This document shows positions 29,030-62,724 of a stretch of 64,000 nt of DNA, piece by piece. The position numbers and the translations under genes are program-made. The notes beneath the pieces are model-generated. The model ran no database searches, was not told the origin of the DNA, and was given only the letters and a program-made list of their open reading frames with translations. Positions within the stretch are counted from its first letter, which is position 1. Every line of letters begins with the position of its first letter. Where the stretch lies: the IMG/VR virus record IMGVR_UViG_3300050821_006280, positions 45,559 to 109,558 of that record, one strand, 5' to 3'. The DNA comes from a virus.

Positions 29030-30337
29030 ATGGCATGTCAAATTGTGGATCTGGTTGCGAAGTTTGATCCTGGCAATATTCCGCAGCCAATTCCTTATGT
29101 TTCGGTCTTTGCCGAGCCATCGGTAATTCCTGTCTTCATCCTAAGCAGCAGCATTTTTCGCGAACCCTTCATGGGTCGACGTGTTGCTTCGACGGACGTG
29201 AATGGACAATTCACATTCCTTCTTCCATGGCCAAGCGAGCAGGACCCTGCGCTAGCTAATTGGATCATCACTCTTCCAGATGGTTCTCGGTGGATGGGTC
29301 TTGTTCCTCAGGGAGTCAGCGGCCCTCTAACGATCCACGATCTAAAAATTCATTATGGCTGGGGGCTGATCGACAACAACGGTGTAATTCCCGTTGCCAT
29401 TGAAGGAGATCCAGGCCTCAACTGGGTTGGAACTTGGTCGTCCAGTGTCCCATACGAGGCAAACGATGCAGTCTCATTCCTAGATCCGACCGGCGGCGGC
29501 ATTCCGCTTATATCGAGCTTCCGTTGCCTTATTGCCAATCTGAATGTTCCTCCCATTACAGGAGGCGTCCTTTCTCCAGATTGGGCTTATATCGCACAGC
29601 ATGGCGGATCGCCTGTTCCTGATTTTAGTTCTAGTCCCGATCAGTTTCTGAGAGTAAATGACGCAGCAACCGCTCTGAACTGGGTCACTCTCACAGCGGA
29701 TATGATCGCAGCGGCGTTCATCCCAACTCTGAGCGGGCCGGCTTCTCCTGTCGAAGTCGGATCGACGGTCGTCAATCCAGCGTTCACAGCCTCATACAAT
29801 CGTCCGGCAGCGGCAGCAACGTTAAACGATGGGACTGGAGCTATTGGCCTTACGTCGCCATTCACGGCATTTGCGTATGGATCTGGAACGCTACCGCCGC
29901 GGAGTTACACCAGAACAGGGATCAATGCCGTTGTTACTTGGACGCTAACCGCAAACGAGACGGGTGGTCCCAGCAAAACCTCGTCAGCTAGTGTCCAATG
30001 GGAAGCCCGAGCATATTGGGATACCGCAGTTGATCCAGGCATTGGAGGATATACAGCAGCCTTCATTACCTCGCTGACAGGAAACGCATTAGAGCCTGGC
30101 TTCGCCCGAACGATTGCTTTTGGAGCTGGCGGTGGCACCAAGAAGATGTACTACGCGTTTCCTACGTCCTTTGGAACACCTGCACGCTTTTTGAACATCG
30201 ATACGGGCTTCGCGATCCCGTTCTCCAAAGTGGGGTCAGCTGTTTCTGTCACTAGTACCTTTGGCGTCACGATCAATTACGATTTGTGGGGCAGTGACTT
30301 TGCCGTTGTCGGCGCAGTCAACGCGGGAGTTTCATAA
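29030..30337 (+). CDS. putative tail fibre/virion protein
   Basis: Shared N-domain, WVGTWSSSVPYEANDAV motif, beta-rich C-terminus. Confidence 0.7.
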   Translation: MACQIVDLVAKFDPGNIPQPIPYVSVFAEPSVIPVFILSSSIFREPFMGRRVASTDVNGQFTFLLPWPSEQDPALANWIITLPDGSRWMGLVPQGVSGPLTIHDLKIHYGWGLIDNNGVIPVAIEGDPGLNWVGTWSSSVPYEANDAVSFLDPTGGGIPLISSFRCLIANLNVPPITGGVLSPDWAYIAQHGGSPVPDFSSSPDQFLRVNDAATALNWVTLTADMIAAAFIPTLSGPASPVEVGSTVVNPAFTASYNRPAAAATLNDGTGAIGLTSPFTAFAYGSGTLPPRSYTRTGINAVVTWTLTANETGGPSKTSSASVQWEARAYWDTAVDPGIGGYTAAFITSLTGNALEPGFARTIAFGAGGGTKKMYYAFPTSFGTPARFLNIDTGFAIPFSKVGSAVSVTSTFGVTINYDLWGSDFAVVGAVNAGVS

Positions 30338-33300
30338 TGAACGGCAAGATCCCTATTCAGGGTACGCTCACTGCTGACGGAACCTTTCCGATCGCCAACG
30401 GAGCTATTCAGGTTCCTTCTCAGGCTGGATCACGCCAAGTCATCTACGTCCGCCCCACTGGAAATGACACCACTGGAGATGGCAAAACACCAGGAACCGC
30501 CTTCCGCACTGTACAATTTGCGCTCGACACGATCCCCGTTCTCCAACGTAGCGTTAGCTACGTCGTTGATATCACCGGAATCAATGACGCGAACCAGGCG
30601 ATCAAGGTTCCCCCTTATGCATCTGATAAGCAGATCTCCTTCAATTTCTCGCCTCCGTCACCAATGCAGCTATATGAGGGATACGTCACCCTCTTAGCTC
30701 AGCCAACGGTTGCTGCGACGCTTAATACTGGGACAACCACGATCTCCAGCGATCCTATTACTGGGATGAGTATCGTCACCGATACATCGCAGTCATGGAC
30801 TGTAGATCAATGGAAGAATTCGCTCGTTGCTGGAGGTAGCCTTTTCGAGGGCGGCATCGTTGAGCACAATACGGCTACCCAGCTCTTTATAGCTGGGTCT
30901 GTGTTCTCAACTCCGGTACACCTCTTGACTCCAGGAGCGACGCTTACCGGAGCAAGCAATGTTCCGACGATATCAATCACCAATGTCCATGCACCATTCG
31001 TCATTAGCGGCATAAGTGTACAGAACGCAAACGCCAACACTGGAGCCATTCAAGCAAACAGCTGTGACTTCGTTGTTCTAGACGCATGCATCACCAACGA
31101 ACTGATCATTGGCTTGAACGGCGCCTGTGACAGTATTCTCATATTTGGATCATTCATTCTTGGGGCAAGCGGCACCAGCCTCACGGATATGATCATTACG
31201 TCTGGAACTATCGATATTCAACGGAGCTATATTCGGAACTCGACTCCATCGTTTACGTGTCAATCAGTAAATTTCACATTTTGCGGCCTAGAGAATGTCC
31301 GGTTCGCTGACGCAACAACAAGCTCGCCGCCATTCGTCGACATTTTTGGTCTTCATATGGTCGGACAGGGCCTGTTGGTTATGGGCCAATGTTCGATCGC
31401 TGATATCAAAGTCGACAATGCGACTAATGGCGGGTCTCCGCACCAAAATCCAAACGGAAGCGGAATCATAGTCTTTGGCGGCGGCGTTCTTGATATTGCA
31501 GGCGATGGCGGCAACGTTGGTGGCAGTGGCAATCAGGGTTATGGACTCGAAATCCAGGCGGGTGGTTCTGCCTTTTTTCAATCCGGTCATGTTCCAACCA
31601 CTGGGACCCTGACGATCACTGGAACACTTGGAGATTGGGCTGTAGGCCGGCGCGCTGGAACCTGGACCACCCTTGCTGCCAATCACCCGGTTTGGACTGT
31701 TTTCGATCCATCAACTAGATCATCTATGGCGCCCAATGCTGGTGCCGAGATTACTCCTCTGTTCGAGTCGTATGCGACTTCTGGCCGACCCGCAGCTACT
31801 ACAGTTGCAATCGGCGTCGTCATTCGTGATACGACAAAGAATACTTTCAGCTTTTCGGACGGAACCGGCTGGAACGATCTCGCTGTAAGTCCTGCTGGAG
31901 GATATTTGCCGCTTGCAGGCGGCACGATGACTGGTGCGATCGATTCAGCCTCTAATCTCCAGCTCGGTACCACCACTGCTACAAACATTTCAATCGGTAA
32001 CTCTTCGTCCTCGACGACGCTCAGTGGAGTGATCGCAAGCGACCTCTCTTTCGTCAAGGAGACTGCACGCAATCTCGGAATTGCCACATCAACCACGATC
32101 GGCGCCGCCGGCCCGACGCTATCAATCAATGGCGCTACTTCAGCCGCTGCTAGCGCAGGAGCCGCAGCTGGACAAGCTGGCTTGCTCGCGCTGGTTGGTG
32201 GCGTCGGCGGCACTTCAAGTTCAACGCAGGCTGCGGGTTCTGGTGGTGACATCAGCATTATTGCGGGCGCAGCCGGATTGAACGCGCTCGGAGGTGGTGC
32301 TGCGGCCCGAGGCGGAAATCTCGTACTCGACTCGGGTGCTGGTGGGACTGTCAATGGCAGTATAACGATAGGTGCAACCAACGCCCTCTCTATTGGTGTT
32401 GGGCGCAGTGGTAGTACCACGACCTTCTCTGGTGCCATCACTTTTCCTGCGGGGTCGATTGCGATTGCTGCTCTGACAGCAGATACAATCGTCATTGCAG
32501 CTGGAACAGGATTGTCAGGTGGTGGGTCAGGTACTTTGGGCGGCAGCGCTCCAGCTCTTAGTGTTGTTTACGGCACTGCAACTAATACAGCGACACAAGG
32601 TAACGACTCACGTCTCCCACCTGCTCCTTCTCAGCTTGGAAATTTGATCTACGATACGGGATCTGCATACGCAACCGTTGCCCGCGGCGCTGCAAACACT
32701 GTCCTATTAGGTCAGGGTGCTGCTTCGCCGTCTTTTGGCGCAGTGCCTAACGCTGCACTTCAAAATAGCTCTATCACCGTTTCTGGTAGCACTGGACTAT
32801 CTGTAACAGGATCTCCAGTCTCCCTTGGCGGAACGCTCACGCTCACTAACTCGGGCGTGACGTCCAATGTTGCCGGTGCGGGCATTGCTGTCTCTGGTGC
32901 AACAGGTGCAGTGACGATCTCGATTCCGAGCGGCGCTGTCACTACAGGGATGCTCGCTAACGGTGCCTACGTCCAGCTCAGTCCAGGATCACAGCAGACC
33001 GGCAGTAGCAACATCAGTTCAACGAGCGAGGCCGATGGAGGGTTCCTCGGGCCATCGCTGACCGCTTTGTCTGGCAGCAACTTGACGATGTCGAGCGCAG
33101 GTGCACAGACCACAACAGTACAAGGCGGTGCAGCTGGCGGAATATTGGATCTGTTTTCACCGACTGGGACGATCAATATAGGCACTGGAACCGAAGCAAC
33201 AATTAACGTAGGCAACGCTGCCGCAAAGCTGTCGATACTTGGAACTAATACCCAGGGCGCTGCCCTTAGAATTGGAACCTACGATGCCGATGGAACCGGC

Positions 33301-36300
33301 ACGTCGATGGCGTCGGTACAACCAACAGAAGTCGGGTCATCTCAGTGGGTCGAGTATTTCAGAGGGTTTGCCAACTCATTAACGTCTCGCTTAGATCAAG
33401 TATACGCGATGGGTTGGAACATCAACTCCAACGGGTACAATCTCAATAGCGGTGATACTGCTCTCCAGGATATCTGGGAAGCCTACTATGAACCTGGTCA
33501 GGTCGGCGCCTCCCAGATGGAGCGCCATCTTCAGTTTGTCAATCTAGCCGGAACCGCTTTTAGGCCTTTCTCGTTTTTGATGAGACGGGATATCGATTTC
33601 ATTACGTCCCTCTCGCAGGTCTCGTCAGCTACGTGGTCCGATCTGTTCGGGAACACTCTCTTGAGCGTTGTTGGGCAAGGCCTTGCTGCAACGAATGCAG
33701 CGCCTGGACAGTCAGGCGGAGCTGCCCTTCTTAATGGTGGCCCAGGCGGTGCTGGATCGGCCACTCAGCTTGGCGGAAACGGCGGCACTGTTACCATCAC
33801 AGGCGGCCCCGCAGGTGCAAATTCTGGCGCCGGTACGAACGCACCTGGTTATATCCTGATCGTGCCCGGTGCGGGCACCGGGGCGGTTGGCAGTAATAGC
33901 CTCGGAGTCAATGCAGGTCAGGTCCAGATAAGGGGTATCGCTGGCGGTGCGGGGACAGCGACTGCTCCAGGAGGACAGGGCAGTGGAGTCTTCGTCAATG
34001 GTGGTAATGCCGGCACAAACAATGGTGGCGGATCATCCCTCGGTGGGCAGATCCAGCTTCAAACAGGACCGGGCGCGGCTGCTAACGGCTCCAGCGGTGG
34101 CACACAAGGCGGAGCGCTTGGTCTAACTGGTGGCGCAGGCGGTGCGGGCTCCGCGACAGGAAGCGCTTCTGTTGGTGCTTATCTAACATTTACTGGAGGG
34201 GTGGGCGGTGCGTCTGGTGGCTTTTCAGCTGGTGGTCAGGGTGGTGCCGTTATTAGCAAAGGCGGCGCGGGTGGACTTGCGTCTGGATCACAGTCTGGAG
34301 GTCGAGGTGGTGAAGTTGATCTAATCGCTGGCACCGGTGGCGCAGCAGCGATAGGGGCTGGCGCTGGAGGTACGGGAGGTCCAGCCTTCGCCGAAGGTGG
34401 AGTTGGTGGAGCTGGCACAGCAAGCGGTGCGGCAGGAAGTGGCGGCGCCATCACCGTTCTCGGTGGTTCGGCTGGGGCGAATGGCGGAGCAGGTGGTGCA
34501 AACGGAGGGAATGCAACTTTCGATGCAGGTGCTGGATCTGGTGCTGGAATTGGCGGGGTTGTCCAGATAGCTAATGCCAACGCAAGTAGCTTTACTATCG
34601 GCGGTACCAATGTAACAGCTAGTTCGACCGTCAGCACTGGAAGTACATCTACTCTGACGATTCAAGGCGGGGTTTCTGGAGGCATACTCGATCTCCGTGC
34701 TCCGCTCGGTACCGTTAATGTTGGTGATATCTCAGCAACGACCCTGAATCTAGGAAACGGCACAACCACCGTTTCTCAAAATGGCGCGACTTACACAGGA
34801 ACGCTGACTGCCCCTTCAACGGTTGGGACTGTTGGTGGAGCATGGGCGGAAACTGCTGCAACAGGAGGAGCTGGATCTAGCGTCACAGCTGGCGGTACTG
34901 GTGGCACATGGACTGCTACGTCTGGCGCGGGTGGTGCTGGAGGCACTTCTGGAAATGGTGGCAACGCTGGAAACGCGACTGTTACGGGAGGAACTGGTGG
35001 TGCGGCCGGGACAGTCTCTGGTACGGGCGGAGCTGGCGGGCAAGTCTCTCTTCTTAGTGGTGTTGGAGGTGCCGCATCTACTGGTACAGGTGCGGGTGGT
35101 GCGGGTGGTCTTGTTCAACTTATTGCCAACACCGGTGGAGCCTCTTCAGCGACCGGAAACGGTGGGGCGGGCGGTGGAGTTACGATTCTGTCTGGTTCTG
35201 GTGCCAACGCTACAGCGAATGGTGGAACTGGCGGAGGTGCGGGAAGTATCACGCTGACAGCGGGAACAGCGGGAACTGGCAACGCGACCGGCAATGTTTC
35301 AGGTGGCAACGCCGGCAATATCAACTTCAACGCCTCGGCAGCAGCTAATGCCGCTGGCAGCGCGAACGCAACCATTGCGGGATCTGTATTCGCTACAGCC
35401 GGCGCGGGTGGAAATGCAGCAGCCAGTGGTGGTGCCGCAACTGGCGGAGGATCATTTACTGGGACTGCTGGCGCTGGTGGCACTGGCGCTGTTTCAGTCA
35501 ATGCTGGTGTCGGTGGAGTAGCCTCTGTCATTGGTGGTGTTGGTGGTAACTCTGGCAGCTCTGCGTCGTCGCCTGGTACGGGAGGAAATGCCAACGTCAC
35601 TGGTGGCAACGGTGGGAGTGCCAATACCGGCGGCGGTGCCGTCGGTGGTACGGGAGGGACGATCAACGTCACGGCCGGTATTGGTGGACTTGGCGATGCT
35701 GCAAACAACACAGCGGCTGGAGTTGGTGGTCCAGCAAATGTTAAGTCTGGTGCAGGTGGAGCGGCTGGAACTGGAACTGGCGCCGCTGGCGCTGGTGGTC
35801 TTCTAACTGTTCAAGGTGGTATTGGTGGGGCCTCTTCAGCGACTGGTGCTGGCGGTGCTGGTGGTGGTGTAGTCGTACAAGGCGGCACTGGTGCCAATGC
35901 AACAGCAAGCGGTGGAGCTGGAGGAGCCGCAGGCTCCGTCACAATTACAGCCGGAAATCCCGGTAACGGAAATGCGACGGGCAATGTCGCTGGTGGTGTC
36001 GGCGGAAATCTAAATCTAAAAAGCAGCCCCGGAGCAAATGCAGCTGGCGCTGCCAACGCTACTGCTCCTGGTGCGCTTTCAGCTACGGCAGGAGCTGGCG
36101 GTAACGCGTCGACGACTAGTGGAACGGCGTCGATCGGAGGAACTTTCTCTGCCACAGGTGGAGCTGGTGGCGCTGGCTCAACAGCACTTATTGGCGCAGC
36201 CGGTGGTACTGCTTCTGTTACAGCAGGAGCTGGCGGAGCTTCTGGCGCTTCGGGTGGTTTTGGATCTGGTGCTGGTGGTGCTGTCTCACTGGTGAGTGGA

Positions 36301-39300
36301 GCTGGAGGCACGAACACCTCTGGTCCTGGCGGGGCCGGTGGTGCCGTCAACATTACTGGTGGTGCGCCAGCAGCTGGTGACGCTTCGAGTGCTGCTGGTG
36401 CAACTGGGACGATCACCATTCAGAGCGCTAGTGGTGGAACCAACAACGGTGGCGGTGGCTCTGCTGGTGGTGCAATCAATATCCTTTCAGGGAACGGTTC
36501 TGCGGCAAACGGAGCAAGTGTTGCTCAAGCCGCCGGCACAATCCAAATCTTGCCAGGTGTCGGCGGTGCAGGTTCTGCGAGTGTCGGCGGAGGTACTGGC
36601 GGCAATGGTCTGCTTAAAGGCGGCGCTGGTGGTGTGGCTTCAAGTGGTGGTGTCGGCGGAACAGGTGGTCAAGCAAACGTCCAAGCTGGCGCAGGTGGTG
36701 CCGCTGGAACTAGTAATGGTGGTGTTGGTGGTCAGGTAAGTATCAATTCTGGTGCGGGTGGCGCTGCATCAGCAAGTGGTGGTGTTGGTGGTGCGGGGGG
36801 AATCGTACTTATCCAATCGGGTGCTGGCGGCGCCGGAGTTGCTGGCTCCAACATCGCCGGTGGACTCGGTGGAAACCTAACCGTTGTTGGTGGTACTGGC
36901 GCTGCTGTTGCTGGAAGCGCTGCTGCTAAGAATGGTGGCTCATTCCAAGCACAGGGTGGAACTGGCGGCGCCGGTAACACAGGAAGCGCCGCAGCTGGAA
37001 CAGGTGGTCCCGCTACACTTCTTGGCGGTGCGGGCGGCGTATCAAGTGCGACCAGTGCCGGAGGTTCAGGAGGAGGCACATTCGTCACTGGTGGCCCTGG
37101 CGCGAATGCGACTGCGTCTGGCGGTGGGGCAGGTAATGGTGGTGGTGTAGCCATAGTAGGTGGCGGATCCGGTGCAGGAAACGCCACCGGCAACGTCGGC
37201 GGCGGGGCAGGCGGTGTCGTTACGATCAACGGCGGAGCCAGTGCTGCTGCGGCTGGTAGCGCTAATGCGATAACTGGATCCACTGTATCTTTGACGGGCG
37301 GTACCGGTGGAGCTGCTGGTGCTGGCACGGGCACTGGTGCACCTGGTGGTGGAACAACCGTTGCTTCAGGCGCGGGTGGCGCAGGCAGCGCGACGGCCAC
37401 TGGTGGTGCGGGTGGTGAGCTTCTTCTCAATTCGGCAGCAGGAGGTACTAACAGTGGATCAGGAGGCGGTGCAGCTGGGCAAGTAACAATCAGTGCGTCA
37501 AACGGTACAGCCGCTAGCAGTGCCTCTGCTGCGACAGCCGGTGGTGCTATCGTCTTCAATTCCAGCCTGCACGCGGCACTACAGGGAACGGGCGGGGCCG
37601 GAGGGACCACTACTGGCGGCGGAGCTGGTGGTGCTGTCACCGTCAATACTGGTGTCGGTGGCGTAGCAGGATCGACCTCTGGTAACGCGGGAGCTGGTGG
37701 CGCCTTCAGTGTCGTCTCGGGCAATGGCGGCGCCGCTGCGGCTGGAACAGGAACGAGCGGAGCTGGCGGTATCATCTCTCTCAATGCCGGCAACGCAGGC
37801 GCTGCTTCTTCAACTGGCGCTGGTGGTCTTGGTGGATCTATCACGATCCAGTCTGGTGCTGGTGCTGCGGCAAGTGGGACCAGCAACGGCAGTGCCGCGG
37901 GTGGAATCTCCATCCAAGCGAATAACAGCGGCGCTGCGGCATCTGGTGGAGGTACCGCTGGTGCTGGTCCCACACTGACTGTTCAGTCCGGCAATGGCGG
38001 TGCCGGCGCTGGTGCTGTTGGCGGCGGTAACGGCGGCGTCGTTGCAATCACTGGCGGCAACGGCGGTGCTGGTGGCACTACCGTTGCTGGCGCTCCTGGT
38101 GGTGCAGTTCAATCAATCGGCGGTATCGGTGGAACCGCGGGAACCACGTCGGGTACTGGCGGTCTTGGTGGCACAGGTCTAGTCAGAGGTGGTGTTGGCG
38201 GGGCGGCTGCTGCTGGCAGCGGGGCGGCAGGCAATGGCGGTCCTGCGAACATTCAAGGCGGAGCCGGCGGAGCTTCCTCGACAACAGGAGCTGGAGGCAA
38301 TGGCGGCGCTGCAACGCTCACTGGCGGTGCTGGCGCAGCGGGTACATCAGGAAGCAACATTTCTGGAGGTATCGGCGGAGACATCACTCTTACGACCGGT
38401 GCAGGTGCTGCGGCAGCCGGTACTGCCGTCGGTACCTCTTCTGGAAACGTAAACGTCAGCATCGGAACAGCAGGAGCTGCTGGCGCAAGTGCTGGTGGCG
38501 GAGCTGCCGGTACGATCACTCTGACAGCTGGCACTGGTGCCGCGGCTGGCAGTGGATCATCTAACGCAACAGCTGGTGGTGTTGCTCAAATGTTTGGTGG
38601 TTCGGGCGGGGCTGCATCAACAGGAACTGGTGTAGGTGCTATTGGAGGTACAGCTTCACTTATAGGCGGCGCTGGTGGCGCTGCATCAACAGGAACTGGA
38701 GCGGCTGGCACCGGCGGCCAAGCAAGAGTAACCGGCGGTGCTGGTGGTGCATCAACTTCAACTGGTTCTGGTGGTTCTGGTGGTTCTGTCTTAATAAGCG
38801 GCGGCGCTGGCGCAGCAGGTAGTGCTGGAACTAATATTTCTGGCGGTGTAGGCGGTGGCGTAACTATTCAAACAGGAGCTGGAGCTGCCGCAGCTGGTAC
38901 TGCTGTAGGTACAGCGCCTGGATCTGTTACGATTGCAATTGGAACTGCCGGTGCTTCAGGTGCCAGTGCTGCTGGTGGTGCAGCCGGAACGGTCTCGATC
39001 ACCGCTGGGACTGGTGCAGCAGCTGGGACAGGATCAAGCAACGCCACTGCGGGCGGTACACTAACAGAGGCAGCCGGCGCAGGTGGAGCAGCGAACGCGA
39101 CAGGAACTGGTACGGCAGCAGCAGGTGGTGCCTGGTCTGCGAGTGGTGGAGCTGGAGGCGCAGGAGCTGCTGGAAATACTGCTGGCGCAACAGGTGGCGC
39201 TGCATCTGTCATTGGCGGGGCTGGTGGCGCTGGGTCTGGAGCTGGCAATCCAGGTGGCGGCGGTCAAGTAAACATTACTGGCGGCGCTGCCGGGACTGGC

Positions 39301-39771
39301 GGCAGTGGCAATGCGAGCGGTGCCAATGTTGTGATCCGTGGTGGTCTCAAGGCTGGGACTGGTGCCAATGGCACCGTGACCATCGGTGACACGAATACTG
39401 CTGCCGTGAATATTGGTGCCACTGGCATCACGGCCACGATTCTCGGTGCTCTAAAAGTCAATCAGGGCTTTGGCGGAAATCTTCGCACTGCTGCCTCGAC
39501 GGTCTCTATCGCCAACACCGATGGCTTTGTCGGAGTAACAGGAAGCGGGGCTCGCACCGTCAATTTGCCAGCCGCGAACACCGTCATTGTTGGCTTTGAA
39601 CTTATTATCCAGGAAGTCGGGAATAGCTCTGGTACAATTACGATCAATCCATCCGGGGCTGATAATATCAATGGTGCAAATGCGGCCATCACCATTGCGG
39701 CTGCGTTCGGGAGAAAGACGTTGGTCAGCGACGGTGCTTCCAACTGGTATGTGAATACTGGAGTTGCATGA
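30337..39771 (+). CDS. giant glycine-rich repeat protein, fibre/adhesin-like (3144 aa)
   Basis: IYVRPTGNDTTGDG...AFRTVQ N-terminus, beta-helix-like region, ~1900 aa of GGxGG/xxGxGG repeats. Confidence 0.8.
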   Translation: MNGKIPIQGTLTADGTFPIANGAIQVPSQAGSRQVIYVRPTGNDTTGDGKTPGTAFRTVQFALDTIPVLQRSVSYVVDITGINDANQAIKVPPYASDKQISFNFSPPSPMQLYEGYVTLLAQPTVAATLNTGTTTISSDPITGMSIVTDTSQSWTVDQWKNSLVAGGSLFEGGIVEHNTATQLFIAGSVFSTPVHLLTPGATLTGASNVPTISITNVHAPFVISGISVQNANANTGAIQANSCDFVVLDACITNELIIGLNGACDSILIFGSFILGASGTSLTDMIITSGTIDIQRSYIRNSTPSFTCQSVNFTFCGLENVRFADATTSSPPFVDIFGLHMVGQGLLVMGQCSIADIKVDNATNGGSPHQNPNGSGIIVFGGGVLDIAGDGGNVGGSGNQGYGLEIQAGGSAFFQSGHVPTTGTLTITGTLGDWAVGRRAGTWTTLAANHPVWTVFDPSTRSSMAPNAGAEITPLFESYATSGRPAATTVAIGVVIRDTTKNTFSFSDGTGWNDLAVSPAGGYLPLAGGTMTGAIDSASNLQLGTTTATNISIGNSSSSTTLSGVIASDLSFVKETARNLGIATSTTIGAAGPTLSINGATSAAASAGAAAGQAGLLALVGGVGGTSSSTQAAGSGGDISIIAGAAGLNALGGGAAARGGNLVLDSGAGGTVNGSITIGATNALSIGVGRSGSTTTFSGAITFPAGSIAIAALTADTIVIAAGTGLSGGGSGTLGGSAPALSVVYGTATNTATQGNDSRLPPAPSQLGNLIYDTGSAYATVARGAANTVLLGQGAASPSFGAVPNAALQNSSITVSGSTGLSVTGSPVSLGGTLTLTNSGVTSNVAGAGIAVSGATGAVTISIPSGAVTTGMLANGAYVQLSPGSQQTGSSNISSTSEADGGFLGPSLTALSGSNLTMSSAGAQTTTVQGGAAGGILDLFSPTGTINIGTGTEATINVGNAAAKLSILGTNTQGAALRIGTYDADGTGTSMASVQPTEVGSSQWVEYFRGFANSLTSRLDQVYAMGWNINSNGYNLNSGDTALQDIWEAYYEPGQVGASQMERHLQFVNLAGTAFRPFSFLMRRDIDFITSLSQVSSATWSDLFGNTLLSVVGQGLAATNAAPGQSGGAALLNGGPGGAGSATQLGGNGGTVTITGGPAGANSGAGTNAPGYILIVPGAGTGAVGSNSLGVNAGQVQIRGIAGGAGTATAPGGQGSGVFVNGGNAGTNNGGGSSLGGQIQLQTGPGAAANGSSGGTQGGALGLTGGAGGAGSATGSASVGAYLTFTGGVGGASGGFSAGGQGGAVISKGGAGGLASGSQSGGRGGEVDLIAGTGGAAAIGAGAGGTGGPAFAEGGVGGAGTASGAAGSGGAITVLGGSAGANGGAGGANGGNATFDAGAGSGAGIGGVVQIANANASSFTIGGTNVTASSTVSTGSTSTLTIQGGVSGGILDLRAPLGTVNVGDISATTLNLGNGTTTVSQNGATYTGTLTAPSTVGTVGGAWAETAATGGAGSSVTAGGTGGTWTATSGAGGAGGTSGNGGNAGNATVTGGTGGAAGTVSGTGGAGGQVSLLSGVGGAASTGTGAGGAGGLVQLIANTGGASSATGNGGAGGGVTILSGSGANATANGGTGGGAGSITLTAGTAGTGNATGNVSGGNAGNINFNASAAANAAGSANATIAGSVFATAGAGGNAAASGGAATGGGSFTGTAGAGGTGAVSVNAGVGGVASVIGGVGGNSGSSASSPGTGGNANVTGGNGGSANTGGGAVGGTGGTINVTAGIGGLGDAANNTAAGVGGPANVKSGAGGAAGTGTGAAGAGGLLTVQGGIGGASSATGAGGAGGGVVVQGGTGANATASGGAGGAAGSVTITAGNPGNGNATGNVAGGVGGNLNLKSSPGANAAGAANATAPGALSATAGAGGNASTTSGTASIGGTFSATGGAGGAGSTALIGAAGGTASVTAGAGGASGASGGFGSGAGGAVSLVSGAGGTNTSGPGGAGGAVNITGGAPAAGDASSAAGATGTITIQSASGGTNNGGGGSAGGAINILSGNGSAANGASVAQAAGTIQILPGVGGAGSASVGGGTGGNGLLKGGAGGVASSGGVGGTGGQANVQAGAGGAAGTSNGGVGGQVSINSGAGGAASASGGVGGAGGIVLIQSGAGGAGVAGSNIAGGLGGNLTVVGGTGAAVAGSAAAKNGGSFQAQGGTGGAGNTGSAAAGTGGPATLLGGAGGVSSATSAGGSGGGTFVTGGPGANATASGGGAGNGGGVAIVGGGSGAGNATGNVGGGAGGVVTINGGASAAAAGSANAITGSTVSLTGGTGGAAGAGTGTGAPGGGTTVASGAGGAGSATATGGAGGELLLNSAAGGTNSGSGGGAAGQVTISASNGTAASSASAATAGGAIVFNSSLHAALQGTGGAGGTTTGGGAGGAVTVNTGVGGVAGSTSGNAGAGGAFSVVSGNGGAAAAGTGTSGAGGIISLNAGNAGAASSTGAGGLGGSITIQSGAGAAASGTSNGSAAGGISIQANNSGAAASGGGTAGAGPTLTVQSGNGGAGAGAVGGGNGGVVAITGGNGGAGGTTVAGAPGGAVQSIGGIGGTAGTTSGTGGLGGTGLVRGGVGGAAAAGSGAAGNGGPANIQGGAGGASSTTGAGGNGGAATLTGGAGAAGTSGSNISGGIGGDITLTTGAGAAAAGTAVGTSSGNVNVSIGTAGAAGASAGGGAAGTITLTAGTGAAAGSGSSNATAGGVAQMFGGSGGAASTGTGVGAIGGTASLIGGAGGAASTGTGAAGTGGQARVTGGAGGASTSTGSGGSGGSVLISGGAGAAGSAGTNISGGVGGGVTIQTGAGAAAAGTAVGTAPGSVTIAIGTAGASGASAAGGAAGTVSITAGTGAAAGTGSSNATAGGTLTEAAGAGGAANATGTGTAAAGGAWSASGGAGGAGAAGNTAGATGGAASVIGGAGGAGSGAGNPGGGGQVNITGGAAGTGGSGNASGANVVIRGGLKAGTGANGTVTIGDTNTAAVNIGATGITATILGALKVNQGFGGNLRTAASTVSIANTDGFVGVTGSGARTVNLPAANTVIVGFELIIQEVGNSSGTITINPSGADNINGANAAITIAAAFGRKTLVSDGASNWYVNTGVA

Positions 39772-45124: not shown

Positions 45125-45255
45125 CCAGCTGGTGGATCTTGCGCAATATCGTAATCATGTGCAAGATCCACGTTCCAACGCTGTTTCGGTGGATCGGTCC
45201 GTTTTTGTTGTAACCGGATTGATCGACCTCCGTATGGATGATACTGTGCTCTGTA

Positions 45256-45690
45256 ATGCGAGAGCTTAGTCACCACACGAAGGATAAAGGCGATCAAGGA
45301 GTCGGGTTCGTGATCGCTTCGCTTCTTTCCCACAATATCAAGATTGCTCTTCCGCTAAGTGAACATCTTCCGTTTGATCTGATTGCAATTTCTACTTCAG
45401 GACAAATGCGAAAGGTGTCAGTTAAGTATCGTGCGGAAAGAGATAGCAAAATTGAGGTAAGACCAGAAAGTAATTGGTCGAACGCAAAACAGTTCTGCAC
45501 TCGCAAATACGAGCCAGGCGAAGTCGATGCATATGCCATCTACTGTCCTAATACAAAGACGTGCTATTTTGTTCGGGAGTCAGATGCACTTCATGGAATC
45601 ATTCTTCGCATGGAACCGCCAGGCAACGGCCAGACAAAGGGCATACGAATGGCGAAGGATTTCGTAGATCCAAATTCGATATTTGTATAG
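45256..45690 (+). CDS. group I intron-associated-type PD-(D/E)xK endonuclease
   Basis: TKDKGD...PFDLIA...VSVKY...Y...VDAYAIYCP. Confidence 0.8.
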   Translation: MRELSHHTKDKGDQGVGFVIASLLSHNIKIALPLSEHLPFDLIAISTSGQMRKVSVKYRAERDSKIEVRPESNWSNAKQFCTRKYEPGEVDAYAIYCPNTKTCYFVRESDALHGIILRMEPPGNGQTKGIRMAKDFVDPNSIFV

Positions 45691-47038: not shown

Positions 47039-47455
47039 ATGAAAAACGATCCAAAAGCCAAAGGGGAGCGATCGGAGGCTATGGTTCTAGCGGCACTTCT
47101 GCGAAGTGGCAAGTCCGTTCTGCGACCGTTCGGTGATAACGAGCGATACGATCTAGTCATTGACGACGGCGAAAAATTCTCCAGAGTTCAATGCAAAACA
47201 GCACGTCGGGTTGGAAACGTCCTTAAATTCGACACGTGTTCATCGTATTCGCACCGCGGTGGGAAGAAAAAAGACTACCGCGGCCAGGTTGAGTTCTTTG
47301 GCATCTACAGTCCAGATGTCGATCGTGTATTCCTTGTTCCAGTCAGTCATGTTGGTACCACGAGCGCATCGCTTAGACTTACTCCGACTGTTAATGGCCA
47401 GCATGTCAACGTTAGGCTTGCTAGCGATTATGAATTGTCTTTCATTCCAGCGTAA
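47039..47455 (+). CDS. group I intron-associated-type PD-(D/E)xK endonuclease
   Basis: KAKGERSE...PFGDNERYDLVID...RVQCKTA. Confidence 0.88.
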   Translation: MKNDPKAKGERSEAMVLAALLRSGKSVLRPFGDNERYDLVIDDGEKFSRVQCKTARRVGNVLKFDTCSSYSHRGGKKKDYRGQVEFFGIYSPDVDRVFLVPVSHVGTTSASLRLTPTVNGQHVNVRLASDYELSFIPA

Positions 47456-49792: not shown

Positions 49793-49867
49793 GGGCTGGT
49801 AGCTCAACGGGAGAGCAGCGGCTTTGCAAGCCGAAGGTTGTGGGTTCGATCCCCATCCGGTCCACCA
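49793..49867 (+). tRNA. tRNA-Ala(TGC)
   Basis: cggc-ttTGCaa-gccg; G3.U70; CCA. Confidence 0.9.
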
Positions 49868-49877
49868 CGAGGTCTAG

Positions 49878-50144
49878 ATGTTCGAGATGATCATCGATGG
49901 CGTGTATTGTATCTCGGGGCGAGGAATTGTTGTAACAGGCCACCCGAACCGAGAATCAATCCGTGTTGGAGAATCCGTCGAAATTTGGAATCCAGATGGA
50001 TCTGCACTCGACACGGTAATCACGGGGGTGGAGATGGTTTCCCCTCGTCGGCCGAATGACAATATCGGTCTTCTTCTGCGAACGACAGAAACCTTGAAAA
50101 CCAAGGACAACATCCACCCCGGCGCAGTCATGCGGCGCAAGTAA
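49878..50144 (+). CDS. stand-alone EF-Tu domain II-like protein
   Basis: IDGVYCISGRGIVVTG...IRVGESVEI...VITGVEM...DNIGLLLR. Confidence 0.82.
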   Translation: MFEMIIDGVYCISGRGIVVTGHPNRESIRVGESVEIWNPDGSALDTVITGVEMVSPRRPNDNIGLLLRTTETLKTKDNIHPGAVMRRK

Positions 50145-50152
50145 GGTGACCC

Positions 50153-50335
50153 ATGGAACGCAAGCTGACGATGATCCAAGTCGACCTGGAGCAGTGCCGT
50201 TGTGGTGTCGGTGCCCATGGTGATGGCAATGGACCAACCGTGTTCATCACCATGTTCCACAACGAGTTCGACGAACCGATCGTTGACGACGAAGCACGCC
50301 GTCAGATCAAGACAATCTTCCCGCAATTCGAGTAG
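50153..50335 (+). CDS. hypothetical protein
   Basis: Short ORF with RBS. Confidence 0.45.
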   Translation: MERKLTMIQVDLEQCRCGVGAHGDGNGPTVFITMFHNEFDEPIVDDEARRQIKTIFPQFE

Positions 50336-50342
50336 TTCAAAT

Positions 50343-50412
50343 GGGCAGCGGTCTGGGACCAAGCGAGTCTCCAAAACTTGCTAGCGCATGGGTTCGATCC
50401 CCCGGCGGCCCG
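50343..50412 (+). tRNA. tRNA-Trp(CCA), atypical (minimal D arm, irregular T stem)
   Basis: gcgagt-ctCCAaa-acttgc. Confidence 0.6.
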
Positions 50413-50431
50413 CTAATGGATGGAGCAGTAG

Positions 50432-50833
50432 ATGAGCGATCCATATAAGACTAAGCAAGTCATCGTGATGCGTAAAGATCTCAACATGAACCGTGGGAAA
50501 GAGATCGCCCAAGGCGCACACGCCTCAATGGCGTGGTTGTCTAATCGCATCCGCACGTCGAAGCGAGAAAATGGCCGTTATCTCGTTGAGCTTAGCGAGG
50601 CCGAAAGAGTCTGGCTCGAAGGTCAATTTGCTAAGGTGACATGCCAGGTTGACTCTGCCGCAGAACTTGAAGATCTCGTCGCCGCTGGCAAACGGCTGTA
50701 CATCGGAGCTGAGCTGATCGTCGATTCCGGTAAAACCTATTTTAAGGGTGTCAGCACGCCGACTTGCTGCGCAATCGGCCCAGGCACATCGGATCTCATC
50801 GACAGGATCACCGGGAAGCTAAAACTGTATTGA
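50432..50833 (+). CDS. pth2: peptidyl-tRNA hydrolase, Pth2 family
   Basis: KQVIVMRKDL.M.RGK.IAQ.AHA...IVDSGKT...IGP...IDRITGKLKL. Confidence 0.93.
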   Translation: MSDPYKTKQVIVMRKDLNMNRGKEIAQGAHASMAWLSNRIRTSKRENGRYLVELSEAERVWLEGQFAKVTCQVDSAAELEDLVAAGKRLYIGAELIVDSGKTYFKGVSTPTCCAIGPGTSDLIDRITGKLKLY

Positions 50834-50850: not shown

Positions 50851-51042
50851 ATGGCCGAGTTGAACTTCATCGAGCTGCTAAAAAAGCACCTTGACGATCA
50901 TGGTCTCTCCGTAGAGGCTGCATCAGTGAAGTCTGGAATCCCACGGCTCCACATCGAAAAAGTTATCAATGGTCATGTGACATTGACCGCTTCACAGGAG
51001 GAAGAGATGGCCGCTCGAATAGGTCTGACGATCAAGTTCTAA
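50851..51042 (+). CDS. XRE-like HTH protein
   Basis: GLSVEAASVKSGIPRLHIEKVING. Confidence 0.6.
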   Translation: MAELNFIELLKKHLDDHGLSVEAASVKSGIPRLHIEKVINGHVTLTASQEEEMAARIGLTIKF

Positions 51043-56004: not shown

Positions 56005-56412
56005 ATGAAGACAGAACGACACAGAACGCCTTGGTTTCAAAAGGACGGATACTGGGCGTGCACTGCGTATTATGTCGACGGCACTCGCACCACGATTTAT
56101 CAGCACCGAGAAGTGCTTGAGCATAAGCTTGGCAGAACTATTCGAGATGGCTATGTTGCTCATCACAAAGATGAAAACAGATCAAACAACAATCCAGATA
56201 ATCTCGAAGAGAAATTCGAGCCCGATCATTGTAGGGATCATCGTCCGCCAGCCGAAATAATTGAGATTATCTGTCCTGAGTGCGGACAAACGAAGAAAAA
56301 GATCGCTCGCCTCGTTAGGCATAACCAGAAACAGGGAAAGGAAGGACCGTTCTGCGATAGGCGTTGCGCCGGAAGATGGAATGCGAAGAAACAACATGCT
56401 CGGGTGGCGTAA
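56005..56412 (+). CDS. HNH homing endonuclease
   Basis: YQHREVLE..LGR...VAHHKDENRSNNNPDNL; CPEC...FCDRRC. Confidence 0.85.
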   Translation: MKTERHRTPWFQKDGYWACTAYYVDGTRTTIYQHREVLEHKLGRTIRDGYVAHHKDENRSNNNPDNLEEKFEPDHCRDHRPPAEIIEIICPECGQTKKKIARLVRHNQKQGKEGPFCDRRCAGRWNAKKQHARVA

Positions 56413-58167: not shown

Positions 58168-58218
58168 CAACCTGTCAGAAATGAGGGCTAGGTGCGTCCT
58201 AGCAGAAAGGAGGCGGTC

Positions 58219-58836
58219 ATGAGTATGGCCCTTCAAAGTACACGGACACTGCTTCTCTCCAATGCCTACGAGCCGATTCAGGCCATCTCCTTGAAGAGGG
58301 CAATGACCCTGCTGTTCAATGGCAAGGTCGAGGTCATCGAGGAGTACGACTGGAACATCGTACCTGTCCCTTCCGAGATTCAGACGGATGTGCAGGTAAC
58401 GCATGGCAATGAGCGTAGGACGGTCAAGCGTACGATGATCGTCTTCAAGGCTCCTGCCGTCGTTCGTCTGCTTACCGCCTTCATCCGCCGCCGTAGGCCG
58501 ATAAAGTTCTCGCGCGTGAACATCTATGCTCGTGACCGTTACACGTGCCAGTACTGCGGTACCAAGAGGACATTGGCGGAGCTGACGTTCGACCACGTCA
58601 TCCCGAGAAAGCTTGGGGGCAAGACGACGTGGACGAATATCGCAACGTCGTGTGGTACTTGCAATCTGAAGAAGGGTGGTCGTACGCCGGAGCAGGCCGG
58701 CATGAAGCTGCTGAAGCAGCCTGTGCAACCAACCTGGCAGTCCGCCATCGCCGTCACCGTCAGCAGTACATCGGTGCCGGATGCATGGAGGGATTACCTG
58801 TACTGGACTGGCGAGCTAGAGAACGACAACTCGTAG
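58219..58836 (+). CDS. HNH endonuclease
   Basis: FSRVNIYARDRYTCQYCG...LTFDHVIPRKLGG...WTNIATSC..CN..KG. Confidence 0.92.
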   Translation: MSMALQSTRTLLLSNAYEPIQAISLKRAMTLLFNGKVEVIEEYDWNIVPVPSEIQTDVQVTHGNERRTVKRTMIVFKAPAVVRLLTAFIRRRRPIKFSRVNIYARDRYTCQYCGTKRTLAELTFDHVIPRKLGGKTTWTNIATSCGTCNLKKGGRTPEQAGMKLLKQPVQPTWQSAIAVTVSSTSVPDAWRDYLYWTGELENDNS

Positions 58837-60679: not shown

Positions 60680-61076
60680 GGGGGTGTAACGGTTTCGACG
60701 GAGAACGCGCAGACTAGCAGGGCGAGCCGTGGGTTCTGGTCACCACGACAAAAGATCAGAACGAAACAAAAGCCAACGACAACATGTACCCGGCTGCTTC
60801 CCTCCGCGCTGCGGCCTAATCAGCCAAGGCTCTCAGAGTAAGAAGCCATCGACACCGTAGATGGGTCAGTAGCGGTGAAGATGTAAAAACGACGACCCCT
60901 ACCACTGAGAAGTGTCGCGACGATCTCAGTAGCGAGGTCTAGACGGCCTCAACAGCGGCTATGAAGACGGAGTAAGGCGTACCGACCGGCTTCGAGAACT
61001 AATGGCATGCCAAACGCTCGTAATTCTCTATAGTAAGCGAATTTTTCGGACCCGAGTTCGACTCTCGGCACCTCCA
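60680..61076 (+). ncRNA. ssrA: tmRNA; tag (A)ANDNMYPAASLRAAA*
   Basis: GGGGGTGTAACGGTTTCGAC 5' end, G3.U70 acceptor, GGAC plus T arm; tag frame from 60772. Confidence 0.95.
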
Positions 61077-61176
61077 CAAATTTCAGCTACTTAATCGTGA
61101 AAGACACACCATTCCCTGTCGTACAACTGCACCAATAGACCGATGGCTCAGCCACCGGTCACTTCAAGCGAATGGT

Positions 61177-62112: not shown

Positions 62113-62348
62113 TGCGCCGACTCATCCTGCTTGTTGTGATTGTGGCGGCTTGCACGAAATCTGCACCGATTCCTGTGGCGGACGATCGAGCCGGTTACAT
62201 CCACAAGATCAAAATCGAGCTGGACACTCACCAGCGGATATTCGATTCGGAGAATCAGCTGGCGCGTAAGTACTGTGATCAGCACAAGGACATCAGCGAG
62301 TGCGGAGAGGTCATCAGTAAGCTCCCGCCGCTGCCGCCACAACCATAG
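62112..62348 (+). CDS. putative lipoprotein
   Basis: MRRLILLVVIVAAC. Confidence 0.65.
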   Translation: MRRLILLVVIVAACTKSAPIPVADDRAGYIHKIKIELDTHQRIFDSENQLARKYCDQHKDISECGEVISKLPPLPPQP

Positions 62349-62439
62349 GCGCAACACAAGGAAGGTCGACAATGGTCAAGTTCACGGCTGTGATGGAGAT
62401 AGTTGGCTCAAAGATTCCTCACGCCCGTGGAGGTACCAC

Positions 62440-62724
62440 TTGGCTAAAGTCAACCGGATGTTCAACCGCAAGCGGCGGGGACATCGGATAACCTTCCTGA
62501 TGTCGCGCGACGGAGCTAATTGCTCCATCTGCCATGACCTTCTAGATCGCCACATCCATGATTACCACGATCCTCGCTACATTACCTTCGACCATGTTGT
62601 ACCCCGGTCAGATGGGGGTCTGGATCATCTAACCAATCTCAGGCTCGCCCACCAGCAGTGCAACAATGAGCGTGGCAATGATCCAATCCACGTTTTCGAC
62701 GAAGGAATCGAGCTGGAGGACTGA
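62440..62724 (+). CDS. HNH endonuclease
   Basis: RDGANCSIC...TFDHVVPRSDGG...NLRLAH..CN..RG. Confidence 0.85.
   Translation: MAKVNRMFNRKRRGHRITFLMSRDGANCSICHDLLDRHIHDYHDPRYITFDHVVPRSDGGLDHLTNLRLAHQQCNNERGNDPIHVFDEGIELED

Follow-up and report, generated by a model that had tools for sequence, protein, structure and literature searches.

A free-standing EF-Tu domain II encoded in a phage tRNA array: a selectively maintained gene and a tentative mimic of host EF-Tu

Introduction

In recent years, the elongation factor EF-Tu has come into view as a central point in the conflict between phages and their hosts (PMC3014915, PMC13581612). The Gol segment of the T4 protein gp23, which is the best-conserved part of this protein, attaches to EF-Tu domains II and III and thereby allows Lit to cleave domain I (PMC3014915). 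Avs7 recruits EF-Tu via domains II-III to sense capsid protein, with the contacts to domain III having mattered most, while type IV Thoeris cleaves EF-Tu (PMC13581612). In the literature searched, we found neither a phage-encoded EF-Tu mimic in the Gol/Lit or Avs7 systems nor a paper on phage-encoded copies of EF-Tu domains. The sole characterised example of a stand-alone domain II that we found is the archaeal protein Pbp11. This domain-II-like barrel has been shown to bind tRNA in gel-shift assays, depends on a flexible N-terminal tail for tRNA binding and has the proteasome activator PAN as an interaction partner (PMC9540759).

Here, we describe an 88-aa protein, referred to as D2-mini, that consists of an EF-Tu domain II and is encoded among the tRNA genes of a soil phage. 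The window, i.e. the whole stretch of 64,000 nucleotides that was analysed, comprises bases 45559-109558 of an IMG/VR viral contig of 109,558 b with a CheckV completeness of 68%.

Results

Genomic setting of the D2-mini gene

ARAGORN and Rfam detected 43 tRNA genes and a tmRNA at 42971-62996 of the window, all on the plus strand, with small ORFs and homing endonucleases sitting among the tRNA genes (Table 1). Five genes of homing-endonuclease type are scattered through this array, which suggests that mobile insertions and gene fragments tend to accumulate in it. Ahead of the array, a 3144-aa ORF at 30337-39771 (+) coincides with a jump in G+C content from ~0.53 to 0.60-0.62 and with a reversal of the GC skew.

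Table 1 Features of the D2-mini gene, its immediate neighbours and the surrounding tRNA array. Positions refer to the window.
Feature	Position	Strand	Remarks
PD-(D/E)XK_5 homing-endonuclease-type gene	45238-45690	+	
PD-(D/E)XK_5 homing-endonuclease-type gene	47039-47455	+	
tRNA-Ala(tgc)	49793-49867	+	ARAGORN; Rfam tRNA 63.6 bits; ends 10 nt 5' of the D2-mini gene
Shine-Dalgarno-like GAGG	49869-49872	+	5 nt before the D2-mini ATG, 2 nt past the CCA end of tRNA-Ala; read from the sequence
D2-mini gene (stand-alone EF-Tu domain II, 88 aa)	49878-50144	+	ATG to TAA, stop at 50142-50144; intact frame
60-aa ORF (ORF60)	50153-50335	+	begins 9 nt past the D2-mini stop; AAGGTGA ahead of its ATG
Weak tRNA-Trp(cca) candidate	50343-50413	+	ARAGORN at relaxed threshold; A.G mismatch in the acceptor stem, short D arm
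PTH2-type peptidyl-tRNA hydrolase	50432-50833	+	Pfam PF01981, E 6.5e-28; phrog_1866; two genes 3' of the D2-mini gene
HNH homing-endonuclease-type gene	56005-56412	+	
HNH homing-endonuclease-type gene	58192-58836	+	
Gol-like ORF, 95 aa	59332-59619	+	Pfam Gp23, E 2e-10, 41 bits, above cut-off, profile positions 3-44; PHROG 138
Phage tmRNA	60680-61077	+	Rfam 112 bits; tag peptide ANDNMYPAASLRAAA; at the end of the array
HNH homing-endonuclease-type gene	62140-62724	+	

The translation of the D2-mini gene contains the motifs SGRGIVVTG, TGVEM and NIGLLLR. This agrees with the preliminary description of this DNA, made from the sequence alone, which had noted an intact 88-aa ORF with the pattern SGRGxVVTG, TGVEM and NxGLLLR. 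The downstream ORF60 is a possible co-translated neighbour. It had no match in Pfam, PHROG, NCBIfam or PADLOC and is absent beside the D2-mini relative at locus L003 (see below). The tRNA-Trp candidate that follows was called neither by ARAGORN at default settings nor by Rfam, and both programs called no other tRNA-Trp in the array; the minimum free energy fold of 50336-50430 was no better than that of shuffled sequences (z 0.08). The PTH2 in this phage tRNA array is of the archaeal/eukaryotic type, and a gene for a small HTH protein comes next (50851-51042). Peptidyl-tRNA hydrolases act on acylated tRNA 3' ends.

Between 48800 and 51300, neither a sigma-70-like promoter nor a convincing terminator was detected, which suggests that the D2-mini gene may lie within a co-directional tRNA transcription unit. 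A soil metatranscriptomic library contained two contigs of 151 nt (50033-50183 and 50205-50355) that match the window without any mismatch, and the first of these bridges the D2-mini stop and the ORF60 start. As DNA can contaminate metatranscriptomic libraries, this gives a weak hint of transcription only. Soil metagenomes from at least two other studies contain the same DNA; stretches without read cover were left out here, as were the small-share runs X3 and X4 as evidence for the habitat.

D2-mini is a free-standing EF-Tu domain II

NCBIfam EF-Tu models matched D2-mini with E-values of 3e-12 to 3e-11, and exclusively over model positions 211/213-293/295 (NF009372, E 3.1e-12, positions 213-295 of 396; TIGR00485, E 2e-11, positions 211-293 of 394). 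Solved EF-Tu chains in the PDB were matched over residues ~211-284 (E 1e-8). With 43-46 bits, the protein stays below the TIGR00485 cut-off of 522 bits for a canonical EF-Tu. When the 109,558-b contig was searched in six-frame translation with the EF-Tu HMM, the D2-mini locus was the sole match (model positions 201-293), and no remnants of tuf domains I or III (model positions 1-200 and 294-394; E <= 10) were detected in the contig. The adjacent tuf remnants that, according to the preliminary description, would indicate a pseudogene are therefore found neither beside the ORF nor elsewhere in the contig.

The same description had named a hit to the GTP_EFTU_D2 profile as a check and the lack of one as grounds for rejection. 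This profile (PF03144) gave no match at E <= 1 with the protein or at E <= 10 with the DNA, and none of the D2-mini family members carries a precomputed Pfam domain. Compared to EF-Tu, D2-mini lacks 4 residues in the loop that follows TGVEM and has 4 extra ones after LLLR, which probably explains the missing match. Likewise, D2-mini had no match in Pfam, PHROGs or PADLOC as a whole, and a fold search in BFVD returned no match at E <= 0.001, with translational GTPases of giant viruses as the top rows.

The structural comparison agrees with the EF-Tu profiles. AlphaFold2 predicted from the single sequence an all-beta barrel with a pLDDT of 74, which Foldseek matched to EF-Tu with TM-scores of 0.65-0.68 and a probability of 1.00. 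VIA-align superposed the model on residues 210-296 of EF-Tu 5i4q_C with a Z-score of 10.3 and an rmsd of 3.0 A over 80 residues at 39% identity, so that the proposed check by structure prediction turned out in favour of the assignment. Formally, the lack of a PF03144 match falls under the grounds for rejection named in the preliminary description, but the full-length EF-Tu profiles and the fold carry more weight, and the homology to EF-Tu stands. Together, these data confirm that the ORF encodes a free-standing EF-Tu domain II without GTPase domain or domain III, as the preliminary description had stated. In this case, an annotation based on Pfam only overlooks such domain-II-only proteins.

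A rare family in unrelated phage contexts

A phmmer search against 1.84 billion cluster representatives returned as its best three matches short proteins that share the ends of D2-mini, namely P0002 (88 aa, 58% identity over the whole length, encoded on a 14.7-kb contig), P0003 (89 aa, 46% identity) and P0004, which is a mis-started form of the 90-aa protein P0152 (39-kb contig). P0170 (91 aa) and P0126 (75 aa) came from a profile search. With about six clusters at 90% identity among 5.8 billion, the family is very rare; it has lengths of 88-91 aa and identities of 45-58%. Its members start with MFEM or MFKM at strand 1, stop just past the last strand and share signatures that are missing from EF-Tu: an EIWNPDG loop, a P..P loop and an ETL insert. 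The divergence of these relatives excludes that they are assembly artefacts of one sequence.

At locus L003 (8001-8270), a relative is found in translational coupling, with helicase-like genes on one side and a gene for a family-A DNA polymerase on the other, i.e. in a phage-like replication module. This locus contains no tRNA and no PTH2 and has no neighbours in common with the phage of the window. The two genes share 55% amino-acid identity, with a pN of 0.34 and a pS of 0.75, the latter indicating saturated synonymous sites. Saturated synonymous sites together with a conserved protein in unrelated contexts are the mark of a protein-coding gene that selection has kept and that has passed between unrelated phages as one unit. 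As judged from these comparisons, D2-mini is a real, selectively maintained accessory gene of phages, and its family travels as one mobile gene among unrelated phage-like contigs.

Further searches did not extend the family. A word-index search with D2-mini alone recovered D2-mini only, and no relative was detected in scans of viral contigs with D2-mini and with alignment A2 or in a scan of species genomes with alignment A2. The tblastn matches in cultured phages were rejected as relatives, since they turned out to be nothing but host tuf genes, from prophage records or contaminated ones; the match in Moraxella phage Mcat7 is an unannotated stretch ahead of the integrase. Viral scans with two other domain-II minis, P0146 and P0113, returned nothing, and the nine viral loci that matched a third one, P0046, were all full-length host EF-Tu genes and were rejected as minis.

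Conserved residues and charge

To compare the potential binding surface with that of EF-Tu, the six family members were placed on the E. coli EF-Tu numbering. The residues R223-G224 of the GRG hairpin, G257, E259 and R279 do not vary in the family, an aromatic residue is kept at position 218, and hydrophobic residues are kept at 220 and 226. In EF-Tu, E259 stacks on A76. E215, D216, T228, R262, N273 and R288, the EF-Tu residues that grip the aminoacyl ester and the end of the tRNA, vary in the family. Half of the EF-Tu aminoacyl pocket is formed by domain I. Domains I and III are likewise required for the pocket and for gripping the acceptor stem (Nissen 1995, as cited in PMC9540759). With pI values of 5.0-7.9, the family proteins range from acidic to neutral, and they lack a basic tail.

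The preliminary description had proposed a protector of tRNA ends. Both the variation of most aminoacyl-tRNA pocket residues and the neutral to acidic proteins without basic tail weigh against this role, which is weakened further by the absence of the domain I half-pocket; of the domain II pocket residues, only E259 and the aromatic one at 218 are kept across the family.

Other proteins containing only EF-Tu domain II

The closest long relative of D2-mini is the canonical EF-Tu domain II with 45-51% identity. Other domain-II-only proteins of 86-110 aa were found as well (P0033, P0037, P0040, P0042, P0046, P0073, P0113, P0146 and P0150), and bacterial proteins of this small type form clusters of 59-218 members in the ESM Atlas. 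A tree of poor resolution placed the D2-mini family beside P0040, P0073, P0113 and P0150 and apart from the canonical EF-Tu clade (SH-aLRT 83-89).

Domain II also occurs in larger proteins that are not GTPases. P0005 contains three tandem copies, P0007 two copies and a cold-shock domain, and P0011 a fusion to a caspase (Peptidase_C14), in which Pfam detected one stretch of domain II and our own HMM two. The P0011 fusion looks like a sensor-effector of a conflict system and indicates that the barrel is reused as a binding module.

Capsid protein and Gol-like ORF

The gene for the major capsid protein is located upstream of the window, at 30565-32037(-) of the contig. The protein belongs to the T4-type Gp23 family (PF07068, E 7.2e-72, at 30586-31836(-)), and no capsid protein in the cultured-phage collection exceeds 37% identity to it. 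Its Gol segment aligns with residues 95-135 of T4 gp23 and is ~55% identical to that of T4 by hand count.

The Gol-like ORF lies in the same array as the D2-mini gene, 9.2 kb 3' of it, and its 3' end overlaps tRNA-Arg by 10 nt. It also aligns to T4 gp23 95-135 and shares 56% identity with the capsid protein of this phage over residues 70-120 of the latter, while the N-terminal 42 aa of the ORF product are an orphan sequence. No full-length relative was found, and the sole stand-alone relative is a partial match of 66 aa (P0172) on a contig of 186,907 b. The product of this ORF is either a candidate ligand of D2-mini, a link that we infer, or an unrelated fragment. A partnership of D2-mini with the Gol-like peptide or with tRNA-like RNAs of the array had been considered in the preliminary description. 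The relative at L003 has neither tRNAs nor a Gol-like ORF beside it, and the 16 kb of this locus gave no match to the Gp23 capsid protein or to the Gol-like ORF.

Discussion

We tentatively favour the reading that D2-mini is a mimic or decoy of EF-Tu domain II for a protein ligand, which the analysis makes possible rather than probable; an EF-Tu decoy was also among the proposals of the preliminary description. D2-mini would imitate domain II of the host EF-Tu and, by binding a ligand that normally docks there, would titrate this ligand away or shield it, while it would itself be neither switchable by GTP nor cleavable at the Lit site in domain I and would not deliver tRNA. The likeliest ligand would be a protein and not an aminoacyl-tRNA, a preference that is based on the varying pocket residues, the lack of a basic tail and the new, conserved surface elements specific to the family. 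EF-Tu rather than another barrel would be the imitated protein, because the closest long relative is EF-Tu domain II and because the model superposes on EF-Tu with a Z-score of 10.3 compared to 7.2 for Pbp11. The lead candidates for the ligand would be the Gol segment of the gp23-type capsid protein or a host defence protein that reads the EF-Tu/capsid complex, such as a Lit-type protease or an Avs7-type sensor, and the mimic would thereby blunt an EF-Tu-dependent abortive-infection response. The Gp23-type capsid protein with its Gol segment and the second Gol-like ORF in the array are circumstantial evidence for this reading, and we infer every step that leads from a copy of domain II to the binding of Gol or of a defence protein.

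Several observations argue against it. Gol and Avs7 contact domains II and III jointly, and domain II alone may bind too weakly. EF-Tu is one of the most abundant proteins of the cell, and D2-mini would have to compete with it. Furthermore, the only relative with a readable context is located in an early or replication-type module without Gp23 or Gol in 16 kb, the Gol-like ORF may be recombination scrap in an array filled with homing endonucleases, and the neighbours of D2-mini, tRNAs on either side and PTH2, also fit a role at RNA ends.

Such a role would consist in binding acylated tRNA 3' ends in the manner of Pbp11, by means of what is left of the CCA-aminoacyl pocket, and in protecting, sorting or handing over aminoacyl- or peptidyl-tRNAs together with the at least 43 phage tRNAs and PTH2. 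We consider it doubtful, although the gene is located 10 nt past tRNA-Ala within the array and two genes 5' of PTH2, E259 is invariant, and the aromatic residue at 218 and the hydrophobic ones at 220 and 226 are kept. Pbp11 (7ANU) provides a precedent for tRNA binding by such a barrel (PMC9540759), to which the model of D2-mini shows a likeness of Z 7.2; however, Pbp11 requires its N-terminal tail for this (PMC9540759), whereas D2-mini begins at the first strand. In addition, E215, D216, T228, R262, N273 and R288 all vary, the domains I and III that the EF-Tu pocket and acceptor-stem grip need are absent, the net charge is neutral to acidic, and the relative at L003 is encoded without a nearby tRNA or PTH2. 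If this explanation was true, D2-mini would represent a minimal tRNA-end binder. Alternatively, the protein might modulate the ribosome or translation factors by occupying the factor site or another partner site of EF-Tu and so retuning the translation of the host, or serve as an adaptor for a phage protein, e.g. the ORF60 product. This would suit its setting in an island of translation genes (tRNAs, tmRNA and PTH2), the short distance to ORF60, which has its own Shine-Dalgarno site and is bridged to the D2-mini gene by one RNA-library contig, and the invariance of R223-G224, G257, E259 and R279, but we regard it as unlikely. The GRG hairpin of EF-Tu touches helix 5 of the 16S rRNA on the shoulder of the 30S subunit. 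To our knowledge, this hairpin is structural in all barrels of translational GTPases, and its conservation is therefore uninformative. Moreover, a blocked factor site would hurt the translation of the phage as well, and ORF60 has no relatives and is absent beside the homologue at L003.

That the ORF is a non-functional scrap of a host tuf gene, captured with the acquisition of tRNAs or by homing-endonuclease recombination and still open by chance, is very improbable. The array is indeed rich in homing endonucleases (two PD-(D/E)XK_5 and three HNH), it has at least one other gene fragment in the Gol-like capsid piece, and the family is very rare. Against this, six clusters that are 45-58% identical all begin with MFEM or MFKM, end at a common point and carry indels particular to the family, and the gene also occurs in the unrelated phage context of L003. 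Between the two genes, synonymous sites are saturated while the protein is conserved. The ORF also has its own Shine-Dalgarno site. A tuf pseudogene fragment is thus largely refuted by the intact frame, the lack of flanking tuf remnants, the relatives with identical boundaries and a pN of 0.34 compared to a pS of 0.75.

Returning to D2-mini as a mimic for a protein ligand, a more far-reaching version may be speculated upon, although it is itself rather unlikely: D2-mini could be the first phage-encoded mimic of a translation-factor domain that is used as a counter-defence, capturing nascent capsid Gol or the EF-Tu dock of a sensor, so that Lit- or Avs7-type systems would stay untriggered, with the Gol-like ORF taking part in the same game. 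A trimmed, selectively kept domain II in a phage with a gp23-type capsid protein is in any case a testable candidate for a counter-measure by target mimicry.

Comparison with known systems

In comparison to T4 Gol/EF-Tu/e14 Lit and to Avs7, the players on the phage side are present here, as the phage has a capsid protein of the Gp23 family with a conserved Gol segment, and D2-mini reproduces part of the EF-Tu surface that is bound by Gol and Avs7. Unlike in these systems, domain III is missing.

Pbp11 of the Thermococcales (Q9UZY3, PDB 7ANU) is also a free-standing small barrel with the fold of EF-Tu domain II, in which E259 is kept. The D2-mini model superposed on Pbp11 with a Z-score of 7.2 and an rmsd of 3.0 A over 73 residues at 16% identity, which is within the range of common arrangements, and the Pbp11 model NF041207 was not among the NCBIfam matches of D2-mini at E <= 10. 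The predicted resemblance would thus be one at fold level only. Moreover, R288 is unconserved in the D2-mini family, D2-mini starts at strand 1 without a flexible N-terminal tail, and Pbp11 is an archaeal, cellular protein whereas D2-mini is borne by a phage.

With domain II of EF-Tu itself (E. coli TufA ~205-296; PF03144; within TIGR00485), D2-mini shares 36-51% identity, the seven-strand barrel, the GRG hairpin, TGVEM with E259, and LLLR. It differs from EF-Tu in lacking the G domain and domain III, in being phage-encoded and in having a proline-rich loop, 4 residues shorter, after TGVEM, the ETL insert after LLLR and the conserved EIWNPDG. Unlike in EF-Tu domain II, most residues of the aminoacyl pocket are unconserved in the family, and the protein falls below the Pfam domain threshold. 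The bacterial domain-II-only proteins of ~93-140 aa, often annotated as 'EF-Tu/IF-2/RF-3 family GTPase' or 'EF-Tu domain 2 protein', have the same one-domain architecture, but they are at most 40% identical to D2-mini, lack the NPDG, P..P and ETL signature, and in many cases pass PF03144. D2-mini adds a phage branch to this little-studied class of EF-Tu domain-II-only proteins.
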